Notes: generated by a model from the sequence alone, not told the origin. 64,000 bases of DNA from a candidate division WWE3 bacterium (GCA_014729135.1 WJKK01000001.1:192593-256592); one strand, 5' to 3'. Shown: positions 125 through 54,717, counted from the stretch's first letter. Translations and numbers: made by a program.

Positions 125-1183
125 CTAAACCAAATCCAGCTTTAGCCTCTCCTTAACTTTTGCCAAAGTCTCCTGAGCCTCCTTACGTGTTTTTACAGTG
201 CCCGCCTCTATAATCTCTTGCACCTCCTCCAAATGACCCTCATAATAAGCATACTTCTCCCTTACCGGCGCCAGAAAATCACTAAGTGCCTTATAAAGCT
301 TTTCCTTAACCTCCACATCTCCCACAGAGCCTTCTCTATAACGTTTCTTCAGATCCGCAACCTCCTCTTTATTTGGGTTAAAAGCATCATGATAAATAAA
401 AACAGGATTTCCTTCCACCGTTCCCGGATCCGTAGGATGAATTCGATTAGGATCCGTGTACATGCTCATAACCTTTTTCTTAAGGCTCTCCTCAGGCTCG
501 TTTAAATAAATAGTGTTTCCAAGCGACTTACTCATTTTGGCGTTACCATCAAGGCCAACCAGACGAGCAGTCTCACCTACAAGAGGCTCCGGCTCTACAA
601 AAGTTTCGCCATAATAAGAATTAAATCTGCGGGCTATTTCCCTCGTTAACTCCACGTGAGGAACTTGATCCTCTCCCACCGGCACCAAATCAGCATTAAC
701 ACAAAGTATGTCTGCTGCCTGTAGAATAGGGAAATTAATGAAACCCACCGAGAATTTATCGCCCATGTTTTTGTCCCTAATTTCTTCTTTTAGCGTTGGG
801 TTGCGGAGGGCTCTGTTGTGGGAAACCAGCATACTGAAAATGATTCCTAGCTCGTAAATTTCAGGGATTGCAGATTCGGGGAAGAAGTAGGTTTTTTCGG
901 GGACCATTCCAATGGCCAAGTTTCCCATAGTTACTTCTAAAACGGAGCGAGCCACTGTTTCGGGGTTTTTGACGTATTTGGGATATGCAAGGGCGTGCAT
1001 GTCGGCAATGATGATAAAGGTTTCGTAGTCGTGTTGCAGTTTTACGCGGTTTTGCAGGGAGCCTACGTAGTGGCCTATGTGTAGTTTTCCGGTGGCGTTG
1101 TCTCCTGTGAGGATGCGTTTTTGGTTGTTTTTTGCGGTCTGTTTTTGAGAGGCGCTTTGTTGCTGAGCTGTTTTTCCATCCAT
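125..1183 (-). CDS. trpS: Tryptophanyl-tRNA synthetase
   Basis: Class I aaRS HIGH motif (HIGHYVGS) and KMSKS motif are present. Full-length 352 aa with TrpRS-like architecture. Confidence 0.9.
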   Translation of the reverse strand: MDGKTAQQQSASQKQTAKNNQKRILTGDNATGKLHIGHYVGSLQNRVKLQHDYETFIIIADMHALAYPKYVKNPETVARSVLEVTMGNLAIGMVPEKTYFFPESAIPEIYELGIIFSMLVSHNRALRNPTLKEEIRDKNMGDKFSVGFINFPILQAADILCVNADLVPVGEDQVPHVELTREIARRFNSYYGETFVEPEPLVGETARLVGLDGNAKMSKSLGNTIYLNEPEESLKKKVMSMYTDPNRIHPTDPGTVEGNPVFIYHDAFNPNKEEVADLKKRYREGSVGDVEVKEKLYKALSDFLAPVREKYAYYEGHLEEVQEIIEAGTVKTRKEAQETLAKVKERLKLDLV

Positions 1184-1221: not shown

Positions 1222-1851
1222 TTATTTACTTTTTACCTCAGAATATCCAAACACCATTTCATAAAAACAGGAGGCTCCAAAGCCTACACTAAAAGCAAAT
1301 GCCAGCTCCTCTATAGGTATTCTAAAGAAATTTATTCCGGTTAAGTTTTCCAGCATCCAATGATTTTCAAAAAGTTGCGGATATAAAATCAACAGAATTT
1401 GAAAGACCGCAAAAGTTAGTAGTGTCGTTAGGACTCCATTTGCTAGTTCGAAGGCAAAAAGATCTTTTCTTAGCAAAGCAGCAATAAGCCCTATCAGCAA
1501 AGGAGGTAGGATGTGTGCAATGATGGAGTTATGTTGCAGTAGATCTATCAGCACTGCAAAGGCAAGTGTTGTTATTACAGCGGAAACTAGAAAAATTGAT
1601 TTGTGAGTTTTGTGGTTTGGTTTTTTGGAGTCTTGCACTTTGAAAAAGATTTCATAGAGTTCGGCGCTGACTCCTCCAAAGATGAATCCGTAGTAAAAGT
1701 CTTCAAAAGGGAATTGCGGGAATAGAAAAATCGGCTGCCAGTAATCCCATTTTGCATAGAGGTGTTCTATTATTACGGCGCCTATTCCTATGAGGACTCC
1801 TATTGTTATCATGTCTTTGCGGTGGTTTTTTTCCAGAAGAGGTATACCCAC
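1222..1851 (-). CDS. Lycopene cyclase domain-containing membrane protein
   Basis: 209 aa, multi-TM hydrophobic profile. Resembles the small lycopene-cyclase-domain membrane proteins common in CPR genomes. Call rests on pattern only. Confidence 0.35.
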   Translation of the reverse strand: MGIPLLEKNHRKDMITIGVLIGIGAVIIEHLYAKWDYWQPIFLFPQFPFEDFYYGFIFGGVSAELYEIFFKVQDSKKPNHKTHKSIFLVSAVITTLAFAVLIDLLQHNSIIAHILPPLLIGLIAALLRKDLFAFELANGVLTTLLTFAVFQILLILYPQLFENHWMLENLTGINFFRIPIEELAFAFSVGFGASCFYEMVFGYSEVKSK

Positions 1852-2158
1852 AAGGGGATTATGAGTGTTGTTCCTATGAAGTAGAAGTATTGCACGAAGG
1901 TATTCTAGCAGAGGTTTTGTTTGGAGCTTTTATGTTGCAGCTAAATTTTTTAATATGCAAAGTTCGCCTTTGGCGAAACTTTGCAGGCATATCAAAATTT
2001 ATAGGTGTATCCTTTCACAAGTCCTTTGGACTTGTGAGGCAACAAACAAATGTTCGCATATGAGCTCAATCCGCCTTCGGCGGATTTCGGGTCCAGCTAA
2101 ATTCTCCCGTTCGGTCGAATTTACCTGGCCCAGAAACATTCGCGAAGCGAATGGTTTC

Positions 2159-2249
2159 TGGCGGAGGGGATGGGATTCGAACCCATGTGTGACTATTGCC
2201 ACGCTTGGTTTTCGAGACCAGCCCGTTATGACCGCTTCGGTACCCCTCC
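2159..2249 (-). tRNA. tRNA-Ser (anticodon CGA), long variable arm
   Basis: Reverse complement folds as a 91-nt tRNA. Acceptor stem GGAGGGG/CCCCTCC, anticodon loop CUCGAAA (U33, anticodon CGA), long variable arm, T-arm ATGGG-TTCGAAT-CCCAT, discriminator G plus encoded CCA. Confidence 0.85.
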
Positions 2250-2292
2250 TTATCTTCTTTAATTTTTGAATGGTTTTGGTGGGTTTTAAGGT

Positions 2293-2336
2293 GCTCGCCT
2301 TTCACTTTGTGAAAGCTTCGGGTATAACAAAAAGCT
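2293..2336. repeat. 44-nt repeated element copy 1 (hairpin CTTTCAC-N3-GTGAAAG followed by TCGGGTATAACAAAA)
   Basis: Near-identical (40/44) to copy 2 at 2417-2460. Contains a perfect 7-bp hairpin. Lies upstream of tRNA-Ser on the minus strand. Confidence 0.8.
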
Positions 2337-2416
2337 TCTTCTCAAGTTGGTTGAAGCTGTTAAAGAACTGAGTACAGTTTTTATGTCGTAGCTAAATTTT
2401 TTTTGTTTTCGCAGAG

Positions 2417-2460
2417 GCTCGCCTTTCACTACGTGAAAGCCTCGGGTATAACAAAATGCT
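2417..2460. repeat. 44-nt repeated element copy 2
   Basis: Direct repeat of 2293-2336. Lies downstream of tRNA-Ile on the minus strand. Confidence 0.8.
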
Positions 2461-2512
2461 CTCTCCCGTTCGCATTATTGTTAAACCATTCAGGTTGCTG
2501 CGCAACACTGAA

Positions 2513-2589
2513 TGGTGGGCGTTCCTGGATTCGAACCAGGGACCGGTCGTGTATAAGACGACTGCTCTGACCAACTGAGCTAAACGCCC
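2513..2589 (-). tRNA. tRNA-Ile with apparent UAU anticodon
   Basis: Reverse complement is a canonical 77-nt cloverleaf. Acceptor GGGCGTT/AACGCCC, D-arm GCTC-AGTTGGTCA-GAGC, anticodon stem GTCGT/ACGAC with loop CTTATAC (U33, anticodon TAT, A37), T-arm CCTGG-TTCGAAT-CCAGG, discriminator A plus CCA. Confidence 0.8.
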
Positions 2590-2593
2590 TAAA

Positions 2594-2870
2594 AAATTTG
2601 TAACCAAATTTTTTTGGTTAAGCAAATCTGAAAGATTTGCTTATGCTTGAAATACTCGCCTACGGCGAGTTTTCAAGCTGACCAAAATGCGCATGCATTT
2701 TGGACTGCCGTACAAGTCTGTAAGACTTGTACGATAAGCCTTTGTAAACAAATTTTTAAGGTGATCAAAATGTGAGCGTATTAACGCGAGCATTTTGAAC
2801 TCCCTTACAAGTTGCTATGCAACTTGTAAGCATTCCGACTAAGTACTCGTTCGCTTGTACGCTAAGCCTC
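2594..2870. ncRNA. Dense array of at least 7 consecutive perfect hairpins (candidate structured RNA or repeat array)
   Basis: Back-to-back inverted repeats: TAACCAAA/TTTGGTTA; AGCAAATCT-GAAA-AGATTTGCT; CTTGAAA(ACTCGCC-TACG-GGCGAGT)TTTCAAG; CCAAAATGC-GCAT-GCATTTTGG; GTACAAGTC-TGTAA-GACTTGTAC; CAAAATG...CATTTTG; CTTACAAGTTGC-TAT-GCAACTTGTAAG. No ORF. Confidence 0.4.
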
Positions 2871-2964
2871 GGTAAATTTCTAAGAAGCATCTCTTTGGAA
2901 AAATCCCAACACCACAACACCTCCACCAAAGCAAACGAATTCTATCAAAACCTCAAAAACTAAT

Positions 2965-3390
2965 CTACTTTATCTTTAAAATACGGGAAGAAAACTGCTT
3001 ACCCTCCTCCGTCGTGGCCACCACCTGCAAAAAATGCTCCTTTTCGGGAAGAAGTAACGCCGTTGTAAGAGTCTGTTCCTTTAGATAGCTTTTCGCGCTC
3101 TCATCAAAAGTACTCTTAGCCGTGACAAGATGCTCCTGACTTGTCCCATACTTTAGGTAAGCCTCCACCGGAACTTTTGTTTTCACATCGACGCGAATAA
3201 CATGATCTGTAGGATTTCTTTCCAAATGAAATTCCTGAAATGGGCTCCAAAGCTGAATGTACAAATAAACGGCAGTCAAAATCACCGTGCTTAGTCCAAA
3301 AGCAGCCAAAGCAGCTGTGCTAATAATATATGAATGTGTCCACTTGTCGCTTCTTTTTGGATTTATTTTAGTTTTGGCTTTTTTTAACAT
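2965..3390 (-). CDS. Hypothetical membrane-anchored protein
   Basis: 141 aa with an N-terminal TM helix after a basic stretch. No recognisable motif. Confidence 0.4.
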   Translation of the reverse strand: MLKKAKTKINPKRSDKWTHSYIISTAALAAFGLSTVILTAVYLYIQLWSPFQEFHLERNPTDHVIRVDVKTKVPVEAYLKYGTSQEHLVTAKSTFDESAKSYLKEQTLTTALLLPEKEHFLQVVATTEEGKQFSSRILKIK

Positions 3391-3438
3391 TTTAGGTTTG
3401 ATACTTTTTGTAAAGAGCAGAAGTTCCTTTTAAGTTTC

Positions 3439-3807
3439 TTATTTTTCCGCTGCCATTTCTTCCTCCTCTGAGGATGTAACTTTCATCTCCCTCCTTTTCT
3501 CCCAATCCCTCTCTTGCTTACCGCGCTCCTTTTCCACCTGCCTTTCAATAGCTTCCACAGCTCCAATAACAGCGCTCTCCATGGAATAATCTGTTTCATC
3601 TCCATAGTAAAGCTTTCCTGCCACTTCCAGTTCCACTTTAGAAACAAAAGTATCTTCCTCGGAGCCTTTGTTTAAGACTACCCGGGAAATTACCAGATCT
3701 TCGTCGGTGTTAGGGAAGTACTTTTCGAGTTTGGAAACTTTGTTTTCTGCAAGAGTTTTCATGCTCTCGCTGAGTTTGAGGTTGTCGGAGGTTATTTGAT
3801 AAATCAT
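3439..3807 (-). CDS. hpf: Ribosome hibernation promoting factor (HPF/RaiA family)
   Basis: N-terminal MIYQITSDNLKLSESMKTLAENKVSKLEKYF matches the HPF/YfiA signature. Acidic C-terminal tail. Confidence 0.75.
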   Translation of the reverse strand: MIYQITSDNLKLSESMKTLAENKVSKLEKYFPNTDEDLVISRVVLNKGSEEDTFVSKVELEVAGKLYYGDETDYSMESAVIGAVEAIERQVEKERGKQERDWEKRREMKVTSSEEEEMAAEK

Positions 3808-3867
3808 CTTCTTTATTTTAGCAAACTTGTGGAATTGGCTCTTTTTACAGAACTATTTTGTTGTTTT

Positions 3868-4086
3868 TTATTGCCCGTTTTTAACGGAGTTTAGATCCTC
3901 CACAAGCTCTTCCACAGTTTCATCGGATAATCCATGTGTTTTTGCCCCCTGCTCCAGGGAGTCAAATCCTGCAGCCATGCAGCCTACGCAATGCAATCCG
4001 TATTTCATAAAAATTTCCGCCGTTTCCGGATGCTCCTCAAGGATTTTAGCTATGTTTGTGTTTTTAGTTATTTCCATATTTTTCAA
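3868..4086 (-). CDS. DUF1858-type redox disulfide domain protein
   Basis: 72 aa with a CVGC motif, the family often found with Fe-S assembly genes. Adjacent to the suf operon. Confidence 0.55.
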   Translation of the reverse strand: MKNMEITKNTNIAKILEEHPETAEIFMKYGLHCVGCMAAGFDSLEQGAKTHGLSDETVEELVEDLNSVKNGQ

Positions 4087-4095
4087 ATCAGGGGT

Positions 4096-4461
4096 TTAAA
4101 TTTTTTCCAAAGCCTTCTTCAAGGCTGTTAGAACAAGTGTAGCACAGCGTAATCTAGTCATACTCACAGTAATTCCCAGCAATTCCAGCAAATTCTCCTG
4201 CTTCAAATTCAAAGCATCCTCAACAGTGCGTCCTTCAATAAACTCCAACAACTTTTCAGAAGATATTACGCTAACGGCACAAGCAACTCCTTTAAATTTA
4301 GCCTCCTTAATAATGCCCTTTTCTACCTTTAATTGCAGCGTTACTTCATCACCGCAAAAGGGATTTTCGCCTTGTTGGATCACCGTGGGATTTTTAATTG
4401 TGCCTTTGTGCTTCGGGTTTTTATAAGTTTCCAGAAGTTCTTCTTTATAAATGCTATCCAT
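4096..4461 (-). CDS. sufU: Fe-S cluster assembly scaffold SufU/IscU-like (NifU family)
   Basis: Conserved NPFCGDE, GVACAVS and C-terminal Cys. Located downstream of sufS. Confidence 0.8.
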   Translation of the reverse strand: MDSIYKEELLETYKNPKHKGTIKNPTVIQQGENPFCGDEVTLQLKVEKGIIKEAKFKGVACAVSVISSEKLLEFIEGRTVEDALNLKQENLLELLGITVSMTRLRCATLVLTALKKALEKI

Positions 4462-4509
4462 CTTTTCTTTCCGGGAATTTGTTTTGATGTTAGCTTTGCC
4501 TAAAGCACC

Positions 4510-5745
4510 TCAACGTAAAAGTTTAAGGCCTTCTCTTAAGCTCTCAATAAAATAATCAATTTCTTTTTTAGTGTTGTAAATTTGGAAACTTACTCTAGCA
4601 GAGGCGTTTAAACACAGCGCCTTATGCAATGGAGCTGTGCAGTGTTGACCTGCTCTAATGGCGATTCCCTTGGCATCCAAAACTCCTGCAATGTCATGCG
4701 CATGAACACCTTCTATTACAAAACTTACCAAACCGGCTCTTTTTTCTGCATCTAAAGGTCCTAGAATTCTCACGTCCTCTAAAACCCTTAACTCTTTAAT
4801 TGCATGTGCCGCTAAATCTTGAGTGTGTTTTTTCACTTCCTTCATTCCGATTTTTTCCAAGTATTTTACTGCTTCCGCCAATCCCACTGCTCCTGCTACA
4901 TTAGGAGTTCCTGCTTCAAATTTATGAGGAGTTGCTGCCCATGTACTCTTTTCAATAGAGACTTTGTTAATCATTCCGCCACCATAGCTAAAGGGAGTCA
5001 GTTTTTCTGCCAGTTCCTCCCGAATCCATAGACCTCCTATACCCATAGGTCCTAGCATTTTATGTCCGGAGAAAGTCAAGAAATCTATTCCAAGTTTTTT
5101 AACGTTTACCGGTATGTGTGGAACAGACTGAGCTCCGTCGACAACGATTTTGATATCCTTGTTGTACTTATGCACTTCCCGGGAAATTCCCGTAACGGGA
5201 AATACCGTACCTAAAACGTTAGAAACATGCCCCAAAGCAACTATTTTTGTTTTTTTGCTAAGCAAGTTTTTTAACTGTCTCATGGGGAAATCGGGCGATC
5301 CTTCTCTTTGTGACTCTTTCATTGAAATCACCTTTAAAACAGCTCCTTTTTCTTCTGCAATCCTTTGCCAAGGGATAAAATTGCTGTGATGCTCCACTAC
5401 CGTTGTAATAATCTCATCGCCCTTTTTTATATCCCTCTGCAGCATTAAGGCTACAGCATTTAAGGAATCCGTTGTCCCTTTAGTAAAAACCAACTCTTCC
5501 GGCTTACCTCCAATAAACTCAGCTACAGTTTTTCGAGCATCCTCATACAAATGTGTGGCCTCATCGCTTAAAGTATGAATCCCTCTATGCACATTTGCAT
5601 TATGCTTTTCATAATAGTTCAGCATAGCTTCAATAACCTGCTTAGGCTTTTGGGAGGTTGCCGAATTGTCCAAATACACAAGCGGTTTCCCGTTTATTTT
5701 TCTTTCCAAAATGGGAAAGTCTTTTCTGATTTTTTCTGTGCTCAT
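4510..5745 (-). CDS. sufS: Cysteine desulfurase SufS (class V aminotransferase)
   Basis: 411 aa with a PLP-lysine region (FSGHKMLGPMGIGGLW) and the active-site loop RAGQHCT. Confidence 0.9.
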   Translation of the reverse strand: MSTEKIRKDFPILERKINGKPLVYLDNSATSQKPKQVIEAMLNYYEKHNANVHRGIHTLSDEATHLYEDARKTVAEFIGGKPEELVFTKGTTDSLNAVALMLQRDIKKGDEIITTVVEHHSNFIPWQRIAEEKGAVLKVISMKESQREGSPDFPMRQLKNLLSKKTKIVALGHVSNVLGTVFPVTGISREVHKYNKDIKIVVDGAQSVPHIPVNVKKLGIDFLTFSGHKMLGPMGIGGLWIREELAEKLTPFSYGGGMINKVSIEKSTWAATPHKFEAGTPNVAGAVGLAEAVKYLEKIGMKEVKKHTQDLAAHAIKELRVLEDVRILGPLDAEKRAGLVSFVIEGVHAHDIAGVLDAKGIAIRAGQHCTAPLHKALCLNASARVSFQIYNTKKEIDYFIESLREGLKLLR

Positions 5746-5771
5746 TTTTTAAGCTTATTTCATACCGATGG

Positions 5772-6383
5772 CTACCTTTTAATCTTCTCTATTATAGCCC
5801 TCTTTAAATCTTGATCTTGCCTATCTTTCAAAATCGTTTCCACAGCTTCTGCTAAAAAGCCGTCTTGTAGCATAACACTTGCCTCTGCTTTTTCAAATCC
5901 CCGCGACCTCAGATACATTAGCTGCCTTTCATTAAAGGAAGTAAGACTAGCTTTATGGTCAAGTTTTACATTTTCATTTTCCACCTCAAGATTTGGTTTC
6001 ACTTCCCAAGATATCCCTTCTCCTGCCGCCAGTCCCTTGATATTTACTTCACCTTCTGCATTCTTGGCTTTAACTTTTGCATGAACATTTCCGGAGAATT
6101 TAGCTTTAGCGCCCTTTTCCATGACAGCTCTAATTTGCACATTTGACTTAGTATTAGGCGCTCCATGGATGGTTTCAACGCTCAAATCCAGTGCTTTTTT
6201 TACATATCCCGCATAAATCACAGAAGCCCTAACGCCTTCCTCCTCCAGATTTAATTCCAGTTTCCATTTTTCTGTATCTGAAACCGACTCCAAAAAAGAA
6301 GGAATCACAAAAACAGTATCTTCCTTTACAACAAGGCTTTTACTGCAGTCTTTTTCATTTTCAAAAATGCTAACAACTTTCAC
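5772..6383 (-). CDS. sufD: SufD-like Fe-S assembly protein (short form)
   Basis: C-terminal ERQLMYLRSRGFEKAEASVMLQDGFL matches the SufB/SufD C-terminal signature. Only 203 aa, where a typical SufD is about 400. Confidence 0.6.
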   Translation of the reverse strand: MKVVSIFENEKDCSKSLVVKEDTVFVIPSFLESVSDTEKWKLELNLEEEGVRASVIYAGYVKKALDLSVETIHGAPNTKSNVQIRAVMEKGAKAKFSGNVHAKVKAKNAEGEVNIKGLAAGEGISWEVKPNLEVENENVKLDHKASLTSFNERQLMYLRSRGFEKAEASVMLQDGFLAEAVETILKDRQDQDLKRAIIEKIKR

Positions 6384-7699
6384 AACAAATCCCCTTGCAA
6401 AAGTTGATTAAACTCCAAAGCATACTCCAAAGGAAGCTGCTCCAAAACCGGCTCAATAAAGCCCTGCACTATAAGATCCTTAGCCTCCAAAAAACTCAAG
6501 CCCCGCGAACGCAAATACTGCAACTTTTCCTCCTCCAGTTTACTTGCAGACGCCTCATGCTCCACTTGAGCAGATGCCTCCTTTATAACCAGTTTAGGAT
6601 AACTGTTGCTTTTAGCCGTCTTTGTCAAAAGCAAACTGTCGCACTCCACAAAAGCTCTGGAATTTTTTGCACCCTCTTTCACGAGAACCTCTCCCCGATA
6701 GTTGCTTACTCCTTTAGAGCCGGCCAAAGATTTAGAAACCACCTTAGAAGTAGTCATTGGAGCCTCATGAACCATACGAGCGCCAGCACTAATCACCTGT
6801 CCGGAACCTGTATAAGCCACCGAAAGCATCTCCCCATGAGCCCCCGAACCGCGCAAATAACATGCCGGATATTTCATGGTAACCTTAGAACCCAAGTTCG
6901 CATCTACCCAAGACATTTTTCCGCGCGCCTCCACAGACGATTTTTTAGTCACCAGGTTATAAACGTTTTTGGACCAATTCTGAATCGTTGTGTATTTCAC
7001 CTGAGCATCTTCCGCCACAAAAACCTCCACCACACCGGCATGCAACATGTTTTTCAAATACGAAGGAGCCGTACATCCCTCCACGTAATGAACCTTGCTT
7101 CCTTTTTCAGCAATTATTAGAGTTCGTTCGAACTGTCCCAAATTTAAAGCGCCTATTTTAAAATAAGCCTGTAAGGGGAGTGTCACTGTCACGTTTTCCG
7201 GCACGTACAAAAAGGAGCCCCCTGACCAAACCGCCCCATTAAGAGCTGAAAATTTGTTATCTGTTGGCTTTACAAGTTTGCCAAAGTACTTTTGAAAAAT
7301 CTCCGGATGTTTTTGGAGGCCTTCCTCAATATTCGTAAAGATTATGCCTTGTTTTTTTAGCTTTTCCTTAAGGGATCCGTAAATGGCTTCCGAATTCATT
7401 TGTGCTTCTACTCCCGCCAAAAAGTCCTTTTCCGCTTGAGGGATTCCTAATTTGTCAAAGTCTGCCTTTACATCTGCCGGAATATCTTCCCAAGAGTTTT
7501 TCTTTGCCGTTTCAGGGGATTTATAAAAAGTGATGTCTTCCAAATTCAGGTTTTTAAGTGACGGGCCAAACGATGGTAGAGGTGTTTTTTTATAGACTTC
7601 TAGAGCTTCAAGTCTTAGATCCAACATCCAAAGGGGTTCCTGTTTGCGTTTGGAAAGTTTGCGGACAGTATTTTTATCCAGTGTTTTAAAATTCGGCAT
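6380..7699 (-). CDS. sufB: Fe-S cluster assembly protein SufB
   Basis: 439 aa with C-terminal KLQYLRSRGLSFLEAKDLIVQGF. Overlaps sufC and sufD in the operon. Confidence 0.85.
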   Translation of the reverse strand: MPNFKTLDKNTVRKLSKRKQEPLWMLDLRLEALEVYKKTPLPSFGPSLKNLNLEDITFYKSPETAKKNSWEDIPADVKADFDKLGIPQAEKDFLAGVEAQMNSEAIYGSLKEKLKKQGIIFTNIEEGLQKHPEIFQKYFGKLVKPTDNKFSALNGAVWSGGSFLYVPENVTVTLPLQAYFKIGALNLGQFERTLIIAEKGSKVHYVEGCTAPSYLKNMLHAGVVEVFVAEDAQVKYTTIQNWSKNVYNLVTKKSSVEARGKMSWVDANLGSKVTMKYPACYLRGSGAHGEMLSVAYTGSGQVISAGARMVHEAPMTTSKVVSKSLAGSKGVSNYRGEVLVKEGAKNSRAFVECDSLLLTKTAKSNSYPKLVIKEASAQVEHEASASKLEEEKLQYLRSRGLSFLEAKDLIVQGFIEPVLEQLPLEYALEFNQLLQGDLL

Positions 7700-8411
7700 A
7701 ACCCTCTTCTCTGATTTGACGGGCTAGATCTTCGCGTCCTTCTTTTACTATTTTGCCCTCCTTCATTAAAAAGATTTTTTCCGGTTCTACCTGTTCCAAC
7801 AAAGAAGGGTAATGTGTTATATAAAGGATTGTAGTGTTTTCGTTGTTTTGAAGGTTTTTTACGGCCTCGATTATGACTTTCAAAGCATCTACATCTACAC
7901 CACTATCAATCTCATCCAAAATAGCAATTTTTGGTTTTAAAAGGAGCATTTGCAGAATTTCCATTTTCTTTTTTTCTCCTCCCGAAAAACCTTCATTTAA
8001 GTAACGGTTTTTAAATTCTTTGGGGAGGTTTAAGGCAGTGAACTTTTCCTCCAAAAGGTTTGCAAATTCCGCCGGATTTAAATTTGTGTCGTGCTTTTTG
8101 TTATAGATTTGGCGAAGGTACTGCGAAATATTTAAACCGGGTATTTCCGGAGGATGTTGGTAGGAAATAAAAATCCCTTGGAGGGCAAGTTCCTCCGGCT
8201 TTTTTTCAAGGAGGCTCTCCTCCTCCCAAGAAATACTACCTTCAGAAACTTTATACGAGGGATCTCCCGATAAAGTTTTAGCTAGCGTGCTTTTACCGGA
8301 TCCGTTAGGTCCCATTAGCACATAAGTTTTTCCTTTCTCCAAAGTCAAATCCAGCCCTTTTAGGATTTGTTTATTTTCTTTTTCTGTTTTTAGATTTTGG
8401 ATTTTTAGCAT
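7686..8411 (-). CDS. sufC: Fe-S cluster assembly ATPase SufC
   Basis: Walker A GPNGSGKST, ABC signature FSGGEKKK, Walker B ILDEIDSG. First gene of sufCBDSU. Confidence 0.9.
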   Translation of the reverse strand: MLKIQNLKTEKENKQILKGLDLTLEKGKTYVLMGPNGSGKSTLAKTLSGDPSYKVSEGSISWEEESLLEKKPEELALQGIFISYQHPPEIPGLNISQYLRQIYNKKHDTNLNPAEFANLLEEKFTALNLPKEFKNRYLNEGFSGGEKKKMEILQMLLLKPKIAILDEIDSGVDVDALKVIIEAVKNLQNNENTTILYITHYPSLLEQVEPEKIFLMKEGKIVKEGREDLARQIREEGYAEF

Positions 8412-18205: not shown

Positions 18206-18604
18206 ATGTTTAGGTGGTTGAAGCATATAGATTCCCTGGAGGATGCAGAAAAAAATATTAAGCGTGGGTATATCCTTGCGTATTTGTTAGGGGCCTTCAA
18301 CGCCCTCATTCCGCTTTTTATGGATCTCTCGGAAATTATGGATCTCTCGGAAAATTCATATTTAGTTTCTGTTCCCGGTAGTTTAGTGCACTTCATCTTG
18401 GGCTGGCTACTTCATAAGAAAAGAAGTCTTATTGCTAATTATGCGCTTCTTATTCTTAGCGTTTCGAACTTAATATTGTTGTTCACAATGGATGTAGGTG
18501 GGCTGGCCATCGGTATCAGGGCTTTTATGGTTTATATCTTTTTAAATTCTCTGAGAGCGTTATACTGGTTGAGGAAAGATAATTTACCTACTCAGGGCAC
18601 TTAA
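18206..18604 (+). CDS. Hypothetical membrane protein (contains tandem MDLSEI/MDLSEN repeat)
   Basis: 132 aa with 3-4 TM segments, transcribed divergently from the XRE gene. An internal 18-bp tandem repeat lies at about 18321-18356. Confidence 0.35.
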   Translation: MFRWLKHIDSLEDAEKNIKRGYILAYLLGAFNALIPLFMDLSEIMDLSENSYLVSVPGSLVHFILGWLLHKKRSLIANYALLILSVSNLILLFTMDVGGLAIGIRAFMVYIFLNSLRALYWLRKDNLPTQGT

Positions 18605-50008: not shown

Positions 50009-51508
50009 ATGCCCATTCAAGAACAGCAATTAAACAATAAGCAGCACGCCGTTCCCCAAAACATTATGCAAGTGGAGTTTAAGCTAATTGGGGAGTTGAC
50101 GATGCGTCAGTTTGTTTATGTGGCGGTTTTCGCTGTAGCAGCTTACATGGCTAAGCTGTCTGTTCCGCAGCCTTTTACTTGGTTTTTTGTGATTGGTTTG
50201 GCCTTAACGGGATTGGCTTTGGCTTTTGTGCCTTTTGAGGAGCGGGGTTTAGACGAATGGATTGTAAACTTTTTAACTGCAATTAGTTCCCCCACGGAGC
50301 GGATTTGGCGTAAGGAAGCGGAGGTTCCTTCGGTTTTTGCTTATGAGCAGAATCTTAGGTTTGTTCAGCAGGAGATGATTACGTTGGCTCCAACGGCAAG
50401 TCGTCGTAAGTTGGAGGAGTTTTTGCATCAGCGTAAAACTCAGGTTGATGATGACGATTATCTTGACATTCCCGAGCAGGAGTATATTGACAAGGTTCGC
50501 GAGGCTTTTAAGGATGTTGAGGAGGTTTCAGAGGAGGGTTTTGAGGGAGAGACTATGGAGTCTTCTGTTAAGGTAACCCATGAAATGGAGCAAGAGGAGT
50601 TAGAGATGCAGGAAATGCAAGAGCATTCTGACCAACCGGAGCAGGGGGAGCTTGAGGAGAAGCCGGAAATAGAACAAGAGGTACCTCAGAGTCAAGAGGA
50701 GGAGTTGAAAGAAGAGCAACTCCCACAGGAATCTCCTGTTGAGAAGGTTCAGGAGGAAGAAAAAGTGCAAGCAGCTGAGGTTCTTCAGGAGGCTTCGCAA
50801 CAGGAACCTCCCGCAATAGAAAAGGCAAAGGCCACAGTGCAGCAGGTTCAAACGAAAACGCCTTCTGCTGCAGCATCAAAAACACAGGAATCTCAAAAAA
50901 CAAAGCAGCAAGCAGAAAAACAGGACAAAATGTCCAAACTAATTCAATCTCGCTTAAAGAAGTCTCGTCTTAAACCGCTAGATGAAGGAAAGTCAGGTCA
51001 AGCACAGCTTCGTCCGGTGTCCACACACTCCGGAAGGAAATTTGTGAACCTAACTCCCGGGCAAGGTGAAATTATACTCCCAATTAGGGGAGAAAAAGTT
51101 CTTCCCACAGTAGAAGAAACTGAACGACAACTTTCGGAAAAAACTAAGAAATTGCAGCAGCTTTTGGATAAGGACGGCAAAGACGATGGTGCCAAAGATG
51201 GCAAAAAACTTCATGTTCGAAAAATCCCTTCGCTAGTTCAACGCCCCAATGTTTTATCAGGGGTTGTAAAAAATCGCAAGGATGAATATTTGGAAAACGT
51301 TGTAGTTGTAGTTAAAAATGAAGAAGGCGAACCGGTACGAGCTCTAAAAACCGACAAACTAGGCAAATTCTTAATTTCATCGCCGCTTCCAAACGGCAAT
51401 TACAAAATTGAGGTTGACAAGACAAATGAAACCAGCCTTTCCTTTGATATAATTCCTTTTAAGGTCGAGGGAGGTGTTTTGCCTTCTTACGAAATTATAG
51501 GTCGTTAA
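50009..51508 (+). CDS. Membrane protein with 2 N-terminal TM helices, long E/Q-rich low-complexity linker and C-terminal CarboxypepD_reg/PEGA-like beta domain
   Basis: TM segments near the N-terminus. Acidic repeat region (EEQ/QEE). C-terminal VVKNEEGEPV...GNYKIEV. Confidence 0.4.
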   Translation: MPIQEQQLNNKQHAVPQNIMQVEFKLIGELTMRQFVYVAVFAVAAYMAKLSVPQPFTWFFVIGLALTGLALAFVPFEERGLDEWIVNFLTAISSPTERIWRKEAEVPSVFAYEQNLRFVQQEMITLAPTASRRKLEEFLHQRKTQVDDDDYLDIPEQEYIDKVREAFKDVEEVSEEGFEGETMESSVKVTHEMEQEELEMQEMQEHSDQPEQGELEEKPEIEQEVPQSQEEELKEEQLPQESPVEKVQEEEKVQAAEVLQEASQQEPPAIEKAKATVQQVQTKTPSAAASKTQESQKTKQQAEKQDKMSKLIQSRLKKSRLKPLDEGKSGQAQLRPVSTHSGRKFVNLTPGQGEIILPIRGEKVLPTVEETERQLSEKTKKLQQLLDKDGKDDGAKDGKKLHVRKIPSLVQRPNVLSGVVKNRKDEYLENVVVVVKNEEGEPVRALKTDKLGKFLISSPLPNGNYKIEVDKTNETSLSFDIIPFKVEGGVLPSYEIIGR

Positions 51509-51511
51509 AAT

Positions 51512-52210
51512 ATGCCCAACATAACTGCCACAACACAACAACATTTAGACATTGAGGACATTCGGGATGATTTGGTAGTTTTAAAAAATGGGTCAGTGGC
51601 AGGTGTTTTAAAAACAACCGCAGTAAACTTTGATCTTCTTTCCGAAATTGAGCAGGATGCCATTATTGCAGCTTTTTCCATGCTTATTAATTCCATTACC
51701 TTCCCCATTCAGATTGTAATTCGGTCAAAAAAGCTTGATATTTCGGGCTATTTGGAAAAGGTGGTTCAGGTGGAAAATAAGATTGAGGATAAGTTACTGA
51801 AGCACCAGGCAGAGGCTTATCGTCGTTTTGTTCAGGAGACGATTCAGCAAAATGAGGTTTTGGATAAAAAGTTTTACATCATTATTTCCACAAATAAGCC
51901 TATCAGTAAGGAAGGTAGTGCTAATCCATTTGAGTTTTTCACTCGTTTGTTTGGGATGCATACTAAACGTAGGAGTTTTAACGTTGACAAGTCTTTGCGG
52001 GATGCAAAAATGGAGCTTGAGCCTAAATTGGGACATGTCCAAAAGGAGTTTCGCCGAATTGGAGTTAAGGCTGAGAAGTTGACTACTCAGGAATTAGTTG
52101 AGCTTTATTTTGATATTTACAATCCTAGTGCGGTGCATGGTCAGCGGATTCAGACGGATATAAATGATTATCAGACGGCTATAGTTAATCCGGCAATTTT
52201 TGAGGAGTAG
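51512..52210 (+). CDS. Hypothetical protein immediately upstream of virB4-like gene (possible T4SS accessory component)
   Basis: 232 aa, only 4 nt after the preceding gene. Contains DIRDDLVVLKNGSVAGVLK..VNFDLLSEIEQDAII. Confidence 0.3.
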   Translation: MPNITATTQQHLDIEDIRDDLVVLKNGSVAGVLKTTAVNFDLLSEIEQDAIIAAFSMLINSITFPIQIVIRSKKLDISGYLEKVVQVENKIEDKLLKHQAEAYRRFVQETIQQNEVLDKKFYIIISTNKPISKEGSANPFEFFTRLFGMHTKRRSFNVDKSLRDAKMELEPKLGHVQKEFRRIGVKAEKLTTQELVELYFDIYNPSAVHGQRIQTDINDYQTAIVNPAIFEE

Positions 52211-52275: not shown

Positions 52276-54717
52276 ATGAACATACCGTTTTTAAACAAGA
52301 AAAAAGAAGATAAAGCAGCAGAAAATCCGGGAGAGCAAATGGAAAACAAAGAGCCTGCAGAAACTCTAGCAGAAGGCATGGTAAACATTCAGGACATCAT
52401 TGCTCCTTCTGCAATTGAAGTTGATTTTAACCATATAAAAGTAGGTAACTCTTATTACAGAACGCTTTTTGTTTCAGGTTATCCTCGATTTGTAGGCGCT
52501 AACTGGCTGGCTCCCGTAATTAACTTTGAACACACGCTGGACATTTCCATGTTCTACTATCCGGTGAAAGCCAAAATGATTTTGGATGATTTGCGTCGTA
52601 AGATCACGGAGCTTGAGGCCACTTCCATGTCGGACCGCGAAAAAGGCAAGCTAACAGATCCCGCGGTTAAAGCTGCCCTCGAAGACGCCAATGCTTTACA
52701 AGAACAGCTGGTAAAAGGTATAGAAAAGTACTTTCAGTTTTCGTTTTACATTACAATTCCGGCATCGTCACTAGAAGAACTTAACAACGTTACAGCCAAA
52801 CTGGAATCCACGCTAGGTTCGCTGCTTCTAATCTCAAAGACGTCTACACTCCAAATGGAAGAGGCCTTTCAGTCGACGGTTCCAACAGGAATGGACAAAC
52901 TTCTAATTACTCGAAATATGGATACAACAAGTTTGGCTACAACTTTCCCATTTACGTCATCTGAGCTGACAATGGATGAAGGCATTATGTATGGGATTAA
53001 TCGGCACAATGGTTCGCTTATCATTTTTGATCGGTTTTCGCTGGAAAACGCTAACTCGGTAGTTTTTGCTAAATCCGGTTCAGGTAAGTCTTATTTTGTA
53101 AAGCTGGAAGCGTTGCGGTTAATGGTTTTTGGTGCAGAAGTCATGATTATTGATCCTGAAGAAGAGTATCGTACTTTGTGTGAAGCCGTAGGTGGAAACT
53201 ATATTGACTTCTCCGCAAATTCTCCGCAAAAGATTAATCCCTTTGACCTGTCAGGCATTGCGGTTGAGGGTGAAAATGAGCTTGGTCAAAAGCTGCTGTC
53301 GCTTCATACGCTGCTGAAGTTAATGATGGGGGATTTGAATCCTACGGAGGAGGCCATTCTGGACCGTGCTTTAATAGAGACTTATCGTCTAAAGGGAATT
53401 ACTTCCGATCCGGATACGCAAATGACAAAGGAGCCTCCGGTTATGGAGGATTTGTACAAAGTGCTTTTAGGCTCTGCAGAGGAGGAAGCTCATGGGATGG
53501 CGGAGCGTTTGGAGAAGTATGTTCGCGGGTCGTTGGCGGGAATCTTTGATTCGCAGACTTCTGTTGACCTAAATAGTGGAATGACTGTCTTTTCAACCAA
53601 GAATTTAGAGGAGCTTTTGCGACCCATTGCTTTTTACATTATTTTGGACTTTGTTTGGACTACGATTCGTCGCGATTTGAAAAAGCGTATTCTAATTGTT
53701 GAGGAGGCGTGGTACTTGATGGAAAATGAGGATAGTGCTCGCTTTATTTATGGTATTGCTAAGCGTGCTCGTAAGTATTACTTGGGGTTAACAACGATTT
53801 CCCAGGACGTTGACGACTTTTTGAAGTCTGAGTACGGAAAGGCTATTGTTACGAACTCTTCAATCCAGGTTTTGCTAAAGCAGCATCCGGCAGCTATTGA
53901 TTTGGTGGCAGAGACGTTTTACCTGTCAGAAGGAGAGAAGCGTTTGTTACTTGGTGCCGGTTTAGGTGAGGGGTTGTTTTTTGCAGGTACAAATCACGTA
54001 GCTATTCGTATTAAGGCTTCCCCGGAGGAGCATAAGTTGATTACGACAAATCCGAAGGAGCTTTTGAAGTTGCGTAAGGAGGGGATTATTGAGGAGAAGA
54101 AAAAGACGACTCCGCAGAAGAAGTACAAGTCTTTTAAGCCAACGGATACGGATAAGTATGAGACGTTTGATGAGAGTGGTAAGCCCAAGGAAGGATATAA
54201 GCCTCAAAGTAAGGAGGTCAAGTCAAAGTCATCTCAGGCGCAGGGATCTAAGAGCATCGCCTCGAATTCACCACAAGCACAGAATAATGTCATCCCGGAC
54301 TCGATCCGGGATCAACCTTCCAAAGAGGTCGCCTCGAAAGAAATGTTGCAGCGCCCCGCTCCGGAGAAGGCTCCCCAGAAGACGGACCTGCCTCCTCCAA
54401 CAAAGCCCCCAAAGCCCCCGGAAATTAAACCACCGGAAATAAAGCCGCTTGAGATAAAAAAATCACAAAATCACAGTAATGCGCAGGGCACTCCAAGGCA
54501 GCAACCGCAGAAACAAACCCCAGCGAAAAAACCTGCCGATAATAATACAGTGAAGCCCCCGCAAAGAGAACAGCCTCAACCACAGCCACAGACACAAGCG
54601 GAAAAGCAAAAGCCAAGTGAAACCACCATAATTGATCAAATGAACACATTGCGCCCGCAGAAAGGCGACTCTGCCGGTAGTATAGACCTAAAACCTCCTC
54701 AAAATAATAACCAATGA
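52276..54717 (+). CDS. virB4: VirB4/TrsE/TcpF-like type IV secretion (conjugative transfer) ATPase
   Basis: N-terminal VirB4-type domain (GNSYYRTLFVSGYP..WL), Walker A AKSGSGKS, IIDPEEEY motif, and Walker B ILIVEEAW. C-terminal Pro/Lys/Gln-rich tail with PPEIKP repeats. Confidence 0.75.
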   Translation: MNIPFLNKKKEDKAAENPGEQMENKEPAETLAEGMVNIQDIIAPSAIEVDFNHIKVGNSYYRTLFVSGYPRFVGANWLAPVINFEHTLDISMFYYPVKAKMILDDLRRKITELEATSMSDREKGKLTDPAVKAALEDANALQEQLVKGIEKYFQFSFYITIPASSLEELNNVTAKLESTLGSLLLISKTSTLQMEEAFQSTVPTGMDKLLITRNMDTTSLATTFPFTSSELTMDEGIMYGINRHNGSLIIFDRFSLENANSVVFAKSGSGKSYFVKLEALRLMVFGAEVMIIDPEEEYRTLCEAVGGNYIDFSANSPQKINPFDLSGIAVEGENELGQKLLSLHTLLKLMMGDLNPTEEAILDRALIETYRLKGITSDPDTQMTKEPPVMEDLYKVLLGSAEEEAHGMAERLEKYVRGSLAGIFDSQTSVDLNSGMTVFSTKNLEELLRPIAFYIILDFVWTTIRRDLKKRILIVEEAWYLMENEDSARFIYGIAKRARKYYLGLTTISQDVDDFLKSEYGKAIVTNSSIQVLLKQHPAAIDLVAETFYLSEGEKRLLLGAGLGEGLFFAGTNHVAIRIKASPEEHKLITTNPKELLKLRKEGIIEEKKKTTPQKKYKSFKPTDTDKYETFDESGKPKEGYKPQSKEVKSKSSQAQGSKSIASNSPQAQNNVIPDSIRDQPSKEVASKEMLQRPAPEKAPQKTDLPPPTKPPKPPEIKPPEIKPLEIKKSQNHSNAQGTPRQQPQKQTPAKKPADNNTVKPPQREQPQPQPQTQAEKQKPSETTIIDQMNTLRPQKGDSAGSIDLKPPQNNNQ

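Follow-up and report, generated by a model that had tools for sequence, protein, structure and literature searches.

A tRNA-Ile gene with a genomic UAU anticodon in a WWE3 chromosome and its relatives in uncultured lineages

The tRNA-Ile(UAU) gene and its neighbourhood

The DNA analysed here (hereafter the window, a stretch of 64 kb) is chromosomal DNA of WWE3 (Katanobacteria, Patescibacteria/CPR), with a G+C content of 41% and with all three stop codons used as stops. Its LepA and TrpRS show 100% identity to NCBI proteins assigned to candidate division WWE3. ARAGORN detected only three tRNA genes in it, namely tRNA-Ser(CGA), tRNA-Ile(UAU) and tRNA-Asn(GUU). The tRNA-Ile(UAU) gene occupies positions 2513..2589 on the minus strand and is 77 nt long including an encoded 3′ CCA (2513-2515). 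It was called by ARAGORN as tRNA-Ile with anticodon tat at exactly these boundaries, and its score under the Rfam model RF00005 is 72.1 bits, where the gathering score is 29 (E = 8.5e-14 with the full window searched). The minimum free energy (MFE) fold, at -28.4 kcal/mol (z = -3.2 versus shuffles), is a cloverleaf with an acceptor stem of 7 bp, a D stem of 4 bp, an anticodon stem of 5 bp and a T stem of 5 bp. On the minus strand, the 5′ part of the molecule reads GGGCGUU UA GCUC AGUUGGUCA GAGC A GUCGU CUUAUAC ACGAC and the 3′ part reads CGGUC CCUGG UUCGAAU CCAGG AACGCCC A CCA. As read from the sequence, the anticodon loop C32-U33-U34-A35-U36-A37-C38 corresponds to positions 2551..2557 (minus strand) and the anticodon UAU to 2553-2555, where the plus strand carries ATA. 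The gene shows the features of its class: T34-A35-T36 is encoded in the genome, the loop has 7 nt, position 33 is U and position 37 is a purine. The initial annotation of this locus had described a canonical cloverleaf with a genomic UAU anticodon in a C-U-UAU-A-C loop, and ARAGORN, Rfam and the MFE fold all agree with it; the D-arm that it quoted is correct, and the strand, which it did not give, is minus. An anticodon loop offset by one position, which it had named as grounds for rejection, was looked for and ruled out, because the loop in the MFE fold is a regular one of 7 nt. The feature at 2513-2589 is therefore confirmed as a real tRNA gene.

The gene order on the minus strand is sufC-sufB-sufD-sufS-sufU, HPF, an ORF of 141 aa, tRNA-Ile(UAU), tRNA-Ser(CGA), a gene for a lycopene-cyclase-domain protein, and trpS. 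The suf genes and the gene for the hibernation factor HPF, assigned by Pfam, lie upstream of the tRNA-Ile gene (3439..8411, minus strand). Its downstream neighbour is the tRNA-Ser(CGA) gene (2159..2249, minus strand; ARAGORN, and Rfam with 51 bits), and trpS, encoding TrpRS (125..1183, minus strand; Pfam), is found 1.3 kb downstream. A hairpin that can be read from the sequence begins at the CCA end of tRNA-Ile (2486..2515, minus strand), with the structure CCATTCAG-T-GTTGC GCA GCAAC CTGAATGG followed by TTTAA. A scan for consensus terminators gave no call for this hairpin, which is possibly a terminator or a 3′-processing signal. The tRNA-Ser gene likewise has a comparable 3′ hairpin (about 2129-2162), and both hairpins take in the CCA ends of their tRNAs.

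Directly upstream of tRNA-Ile in the minus sense, the segment 2590-2830 contains three or more short hairpins that are perfect or nearly perfect. A direct repeat of 63 nt (2274-2336 and 2398-2460; 79% identity) is located between tRNA-Ile and tRNA-Ser, with its copies 124 nt apart and each copy carrying a small hairpin of the form GCTTTCAC-NNNG-TGAAAGGC on the minus strand. Within the window this repeat occurs only at these two sites, and it is missing from the shorter spacer of a related contig (L056, described below). A scan of 1800-3500 against Rfam at a permissive E-value returned no known RNA family for the repeat. Another motif, AAAAAATTTAGCTNCNACATAAAA on the minus strand, is found at 1925-1951 and 2376-2402, preceding both the lycopene-cyclase-domain gene and tRNA-Ser, with a weaker copy at 2076-2103. 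This motif may represent a promoter whose consensus is not that of sigma-70.

Conservation in WWE3 and a wider family with the same anticodon arm

The contig L056, whose TrpRS is 83% identical to that of the window, keeps the tRNA-Ile(UAU)/tRNA-Ser(CGA) pair. Its tRNA-Ile(UAU) differs from that of the window by one nucleotide, located in the D-loop, and the spacers are unalignable. The order of suf operon, HPF and tRNA-Ile(tat) was found in nine other WWE3-like contigs (L056, L059, L091, L101, L113, L121, L135, L145 and L151), the proteins of which are only 40-70% identical. This conserved suf/HPF context points to vertical inheritance of tRNA-Ile(UAU) with the chromosome. On the basis of these comparisons, we regard the gene as functional, chromosomal and vertically inherited, and as being under strong purifying selection.

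A semi-specific search pattern revealed the same tRNA in one Doudnabacteria MAG, one Kerfeldbacteria MAG and two MAGs labelled as Gammaproteobacteria. These tRNAs have a mean column identity of 95% and show compensatory changes in the acceptor and T stems. The two MAGs titled ‘uncultured Gammaproteobacteria’ (L052 and L055) carry a CPR-type tRNA-Ile(UAU), with ftsH nearby in L052 and with tRNA-Val(GAC) downstream in L055, as in the Kerfeldbacteria locus L053. Their label may be a binning artefact.

Metagenomes were scanned for the anticodon arm with the pattern GAGCAGNCGTCTYATACACGNCCGGTC, in which position 34 was allowed to be C or T, and at least 120 contigs matched. Among the matches listed, position 34 was T in 120 of 120 and C in none, and the free pair 28-42 was always complementary (T-A in 39, C-G in 43, G-C in 22 and A-T in 16). 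The loop CTTATAC was identical throughout these matches, although the invariance of the anticodon arm is partly by construction, since the pattern fixes most of it and allows variation within 22-48 at positions 34, 28 and 42 alone, all positions beyond this span being free. ARAGORN predicted 126 tRNA(tat) genes in the loci of the matches listed, with 88 distinct trimmed sequences and about 38 types of acceptor stem. Over these 88 distinct sequences (again among the matches listed), 1847 of 1848 stem cells are paired, with many double substitutions. The number of pair types is between two and six at acceptor positions 1-7 and two or three at T-stem positions 49-51/63-65, while A73, U8-A9 and the D stem show no variation. 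The arm that characterises the family, as seen in the matches listed, consists of A26, G27, N28-N42, C29-G41, G30-C40 and U31-A39 with the loop CUUAUAC, and is accompanied by the variable loop CGGUC. The near-invariance of the arm, including C38, suggests that some partner recognises it, perhaps IleRS, an enzyme of tRNA modification, or the decoding centre.

The G+C content of the host contigs among the matches listed ranges from 27% to 75%. Thirty-five of these contigs, with 65-75% G+C, an acceptor sequence GGGGGAG and a G1-U72 pair, are clearly not WWE3. This high-G+C group (L062, L075, L100, L125, L154, L163 and 29 more loci) consists mostly of soil or rhizosphere contigs. Its tRNA has a GGGGGAG/CUCCCCU acceptor stem, an encoded CCA and the same anticodon arm, and it often adjoins a gene for a class-V aminotransferase that is 26-28% identical to SufS.

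Isoleucine identity and the meaning of AUA

Beyond the anticodon, the determinants recognised by E. coli IleRS are reportedly A73, C4-G69, U12-A23, C29-G41, A37 and A38, a set attributed to Nureki et al. in 1994. The window tRNA has five of these six (A73, C4-G69, U12-A23, C29-G41 and A37) and has C at position 38, in line with the earlier description of its body as Ile-like. In the wider family, A73, U12-A23 and C29-G41 are invariant among the matches listed and the pair 4-69 varies; since C4-G69 is not conserved, the identity rules of E. coli apply here only partially. A comparison of the window tRNA with all tRNA genes from 5,426 genomes of E. coli placed first, by E-value, a prophage tRNA with a CAT anticodon, which PGAP annotates as tRNA-Ile (Ile2 type). 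The next-best E. coli match was tRNA-Lys, with a whole-sequence similarity about equal to that of tRNA-Ile2. Among annotated phages, the best-covered matches with annotation were tRNAs labelled Ile or Met, for which a CAT anticodon was assumed.

The similarity to tRNA-Ile2(CAU) includes the D-arm GCUCAGUUGGUCAGAGC, which is identical in the E. coli prophage Ile2-type tRNA, as well as C29-G41, G30-C40, the N-GGUC variable loop and A73. The two differ in the anticodon loop, where tRNA-Ile2(CAU) has a C34 that TilS converts to lysidine and an A38, whereas the window tRNA has T34 and C38. Because position 34 is a genomic T, lysidine is neither needed nor possible in this tRNA. The Ile2-like body is consistent with descent from tRNA-Ile2(CAU) through replacement of C34 by T, a route that was proposed by Taniguchi et al. 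(PMC3575796). IleRS would be the enzyme that charges tRNA-Ile(UAU), as a tRNA with this body and an N-A-U anticodon appears to suit no other synthetase. LysRS depends on a UUU-type anticodon, and MetRS on CAU.

AUA was expected to be frequent in the window, and a codon count bore this out: it accounts for 216 of 13,276 codons in 33 ORFs (16.3 per 1000) and for 26% of Ile codons, and is used more than AUC. A genome with AUA use at this level would be classed as ‘high’ (PMC12514573). The AUA positions of the window were examined in two protein alignments, LepA and TrpRS, each comprising about 100 homologues. The AUA columns contained Ile in 64% (LepA) and 46% (TrpRS), plus Val and Leu. Met accounted for 2% (LepA) and 1% (TrpRS) at AUA columns, similar to AUU and AUC columns, and for 45-71% at AUG columns; these homologues were standard-code translations of related genomes, so that the test is not fully independent. 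That the AUA columns carry Ile and not Met indicates that AUA means Ile in this organism. It is almost certain that the gene specifies a functional tRNA reading AUA as Ile. For annotation, this means that 2513-2589 can be entered as a real tRNA-Ile and AUA treated as a normal Ile codon here.

tilS, ftsH and the decoding of AUA

The distinction between AUA and AUG is a classic decoding problem, for which bacteria are said to use, almost universally, lysidine made by the essential TilS. According to one report, about 98% of annotated bacterial genomes contain tilS (PMC12514573). Previously, nine tilS-less species with tRNA-Ile(UAU) were described from three clades, plus a few species with both systems (PMC3575796). 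Other surveys found TAT genes in 19 species (PMC4013482) and ‘Ile3(UAU)’ in 17 genomes of Bifidobacterium, Mycoplasma and Neorickettsia (PMC8450103), and a 2026 preprint still speaks of ‘rare cases’ (10.64898/2026.02.03.703510). The initial annotation, too, had treated bacterial tRNA-Ile(UAU) as rare and as known from a few TilS-lacking bacteria. The rarity agrees with the nine species (PMC3575796) and 17 genomes (PMC8450103) of the literature, but the distribution was understated, as the tRNA is present in at least 120 contigs from many lineages. The family probably represents a large clade, hitherto unreported, within a known type of tRNA. The phenomenon of a bacterial tRNA-Ile(UAU) is already known, and the possible extension is a large, ftsH-linked cellular family in uncultured lineages. 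Our literature search found nothing linking lysidine or tilS to Patescibacteria/CPR.

In Mycoplasma mobile, which has neither tilS nor tRNA-Ile(CAT), experiments showed that U34 of tRNA-Ile2(UAU) is unmodified, that IleRS is adapted through Arg865, and that AUG is discriminated through the ribosome and competition by tRNA-Met (PMC3575796). The present case resembles it, by description rather than by sequence comparison, in that a genomic UAU reads AUA as Ile in a small genome with frequent AUA; A37 (the t6A site) and G46 (the m7G site) are also present. M. mobile differs in that it belongs to the Mollicutes and not to the Patescibacteria, and in that its decoding traits have been established by experiment. 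A modification of U34, which had been taken to follow from the UAU anticodon, is not implied, because M. mobile uses an unmodified U34 (PMC3575796). Bifidobacterium and Neorickettsia are alike in having a lineage-wide, not strain-specific, tRNA-Ile(UAU), which in their case replaces tRNA-Ile2(CAU), and they have no tilS and a horizontally acquired IleRS of eukaryotic type (PMC3575796, PMC8450103). In the archaea Nanoarchaeum equitans and Korarchaeum cryptofilum, which are also ultra-small or deep-branching, tRNA-Ile(UAU) makes a C34-modifying enzyme unnecessary (PMC8450103, PMC3575796); here the likeness is by description and the domain differs. The domain differs likewise for eukaryotic tRNA-Ile, with its anticodon of pseudouridine-A-pseudouridine in which U34 and U36 are modified (PMC8450103, PMC3575796). 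Finally, Lactobacillus casei, L. plantarum, Cyanothece PCC 7424 and Ferrimonas balearica have a chromosomal tRNA-Ile(UAU) as in the window, but theirs is redundant with the lysidine system, since they carry tRNA-Ile(TAT) and tilS together, a co-occurrence interpreted as a transitional state by Taniguchi et al. (PMC3575796). Because such bacteria carry both, the presence of a UAU gene does not imply the absence of tilS that had been predicted from it.

Among about 60 ORFs of the window, which covers about 7% of an 864-kb contig, Pfam and NCBIfam revealed no TilS, PF01171 or PP-loop protein. When E. coli TilS and IleRS served as phmmer queries, neither protein was found among 7122 six-frame ORFs from the window and all loci, and the only matches were LeuRS-like. 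With phmmer at maximum sensitivity and a search for the SGGxDS motif, only a PAPS-reductase-like ORF was retrieved, from a viral contig. Among the matches listed, no TilS turned up in the cellular loci with the tRNA, 126 in number and about 715 kb in all; this zero carries little weight, since it is close to the roughly 0.7 that chance would give with a single tilS in each genome of 1 Mb. Three ORFs of 643, 183 and 238 aa at 37.4-40.6 kb in the window were considered as ftsH-hpt-tilS and ruled out, as they are dnaK-grpE-hrcA. The related loci among the matches listed contain 12 CAU tRNAs, which form six pairs of an initiator-like type and a second type, presumably elongator. A third, Ile2-like CAU tRNA was not found among these 12.

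In Bacillus subtilis, tilS-hprT is located directly upstream of ftsH. Among the matches listed, ftsH is situated immediately upstream of tRNA-Ile(UAU), on the same strand and within less than 700 nt, in 22 of 62 informative loci, which represent 15 acceptor types, and it is nearby in 21 more of the 62. The ftsH-linked loci include L061, L084, L096, L120, L124, L128, L138, L164 and others. In L056-L059, trpS and ftsH are adjacent and the gene before ftsH is trpS. In ten other ftsH-linked tRNA lineages, TilS or Hpt was never found upstream of ftsH; this place is taken by an S1-domain protein, an oxidoreductase, DUF805, a recombinase, ORFs without a Pfam match, and others. Given that the window tRNA is 1.3 kb upstream of trpS and that the order in WWE3 is tRNA ... 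trpS-ftsH, ftsH is expected to lie just beyond window position 1. The arrangement fits the view that tRNA-Ile(UAU), rather than tilS, travels with ftsH in this lineage.

The best explanation overall, to which we give a probability of about 0.6, is that the gene encodes a functional, inherited tRNA-Ile(UAU) that has likely replaced the tRNA-Ile2(CAU)-plus-TilS system in WWE3. According to this explanation, the tRNA would be charged by IleRS and the frequent AUA codon would be decoded through U34-A pairing. In the course of evolution of the lineage, tRNA-Ile(UAU) would most likely have taken the place of tRNA-Ile2(CAU) and its TilS-dependent lysidine. Misreading of AUG may be limited by competition from tRNA-Met together with features of the tRNA or the ribosome, as in M. 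mobile, or by a modification of U34. We infer that tRNA-Ile(UAU) is probably the main or only reader of AUA; the stricter claim, that it is the sole and TilS-independent AUA decoder, has a little better than even odds.

The serious alternative, with a probability of about one third, is redundancy with the TilS system, in which the genome also has tilS and tRNA-Ile2(CAU) and tRNA-Ile(UAU) is a second reader of AUA. The co-occurrence of tRNA-Ile(TAT) with tilS is documented (PMC3575796), the annotated bacterial genomes with tilS amount to the 98% mentioned above (PMC12514573), and our view covers only 7% of the genome, all of which would be compatible with a second system elsewhere. However, an Ile2-like backbone with C34 occurred in none of the at least 120 contigs, as far as the matches listed are concerned, and neither the stretches upstream of ftsH nor the sampled loci contained TilS. 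The lack of a third, Ile2-like type among the 12 CAU tRNAs of the loci listed also speaks against redundancy. In addition, the position and sequence of the tRNA are fixed across WWE3, as expected of an essential decoder where AUA makes up 16 per 1000 codons. Replacement of the lysidine system by tRNA-Ile(UAU) is our preferred reading.

It is very improbable that the tRNA stands outside host translation, either as a passenger on a phage or another mobile element or as a decaying pseudogene. Phages often carry tRNA(UAU), and a looser, broader pattern matched 51 IMG/VR viral contigs (L001-L051) with a tRNA(UAU) and an Ile-like D-arm; mobile-element genes (serine recombinase, VirB4, YopX and Fic) are also present elsewhere in the window. 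Many of these viral contigs are 100-200 kb long and come from one sample (3300045988). The phage tRNAs share the anticodon and the Ile-like D-arm with the window tRNA but differ in their anticodon stems, which are UUCGG/CCGAA in 21 and GGAUG/CAUCA in 8, and in position 38, which is mostly T or A and is U in these two dominant types. The anticodon arm of the window tRNA had 0 matches in 2.9 million viral contigs. The lack of this arm from viral contigs and the different arms of viral tRNAs show that the family is cellular and not phage cargo. The housekeeping flanks in conserved order, the perfect stems, the encoded CCA and the strong purifying selection with covariation likewise argue against a passenger or pseudogene.

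AUA means Met in many mitochondria, and some CPR lineages use a variant code (UGA). A change of meaning, with an amino acid other than Ile (e.g. Met) on the tRNA or with AUA reassigned, is the least probable reading of all, having nothing positive in its favour besides the existence of that variant code and the fact that E. coli tRNA-Lys resembles the whole sequence about as closely as tRNA-Ile2 does, and being opposed by AUA columns with Ile, Val and Leu like those of AUU and AUC (Met 1-2% versus 45-71% at AUG), by the use of all three stop codons as stops, and by the combination of A35-U36 with A73, U12-A23 and C29-G41, which fits IleRS and not LysRS or MetRS.

It is a tentative and rather doubtful extension that tRNA-Ile(UAU) is the standard AUA decoder of much of Patescibacteria (WWE3, Doudnabacteria, Kerfeldbacteria and many unnamed lineages) and of a high-G+C soil lineage. 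If Patescibacteria did routinely use tRNA-Ile(UAU), the exception would turn into a major lineage-level alternative, and lysidine-independent decoding of AUA would be a major bacterial strategy. In that part of the tree, tilS would no longer be safe as a ‘universal essential gene’ or as an antibiotic target. The invariant anticodon arm would then offer a handle for finding what stops U34 from misreading AUG, and it would suggest a dedicated arm-reading partner, such as an adapted IleRS, a U34-modifying enzyme or the ribosome.

Several other features of the window were noted. Directly upstream of sufC, an ORF of 1417 aa (8439-12692, minus strand) has no Pfam or NCBIfam match, and L056 has an ORF of more than 1101 aa at the homologous position. 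Within the suf operon (5772-7699, minus strand), a SufB/D-type protein of 439 aa is followed by a short SufBD-core protein of 203 aa; the corresponding pair in L056 is split otherwise, into 178 and 196 aa. The tRNA-Asn(GUU) gene (plus strand) overlaps by 42 nt with the 3′ end of an ORF for a large serine recombinase of 535 aa on the minus strand (13989-15629). Beyond the recombinase, at 15.6-25 kb, are about 10 kb of ORFs without a Pfam or NCBIfam match, one of which is 996 aa long. This tRNA-Asn/serine recombinase region may be an integrated element, and a search for an att-type repeat of the tRNA-Asn 3′ end found none. At 46.5-55.4 kb, YopX and a SocA/Panacea antitoxin are followed by a conjugation/type IV secretion set of Gram-positive type, including a PrgI-like gene (50009-51508) and an apparently split VirB4 (51512-52210 and 52276-54717). 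The set from YopX to VirB4 lies between proS and holA and adjoins a sortase. Lastly, within an ORF at 18206-18604, two perfect copies of an 18-nt unit, TTATGGATCTCTCGGAAA, stand in tandem at 18318-18353.
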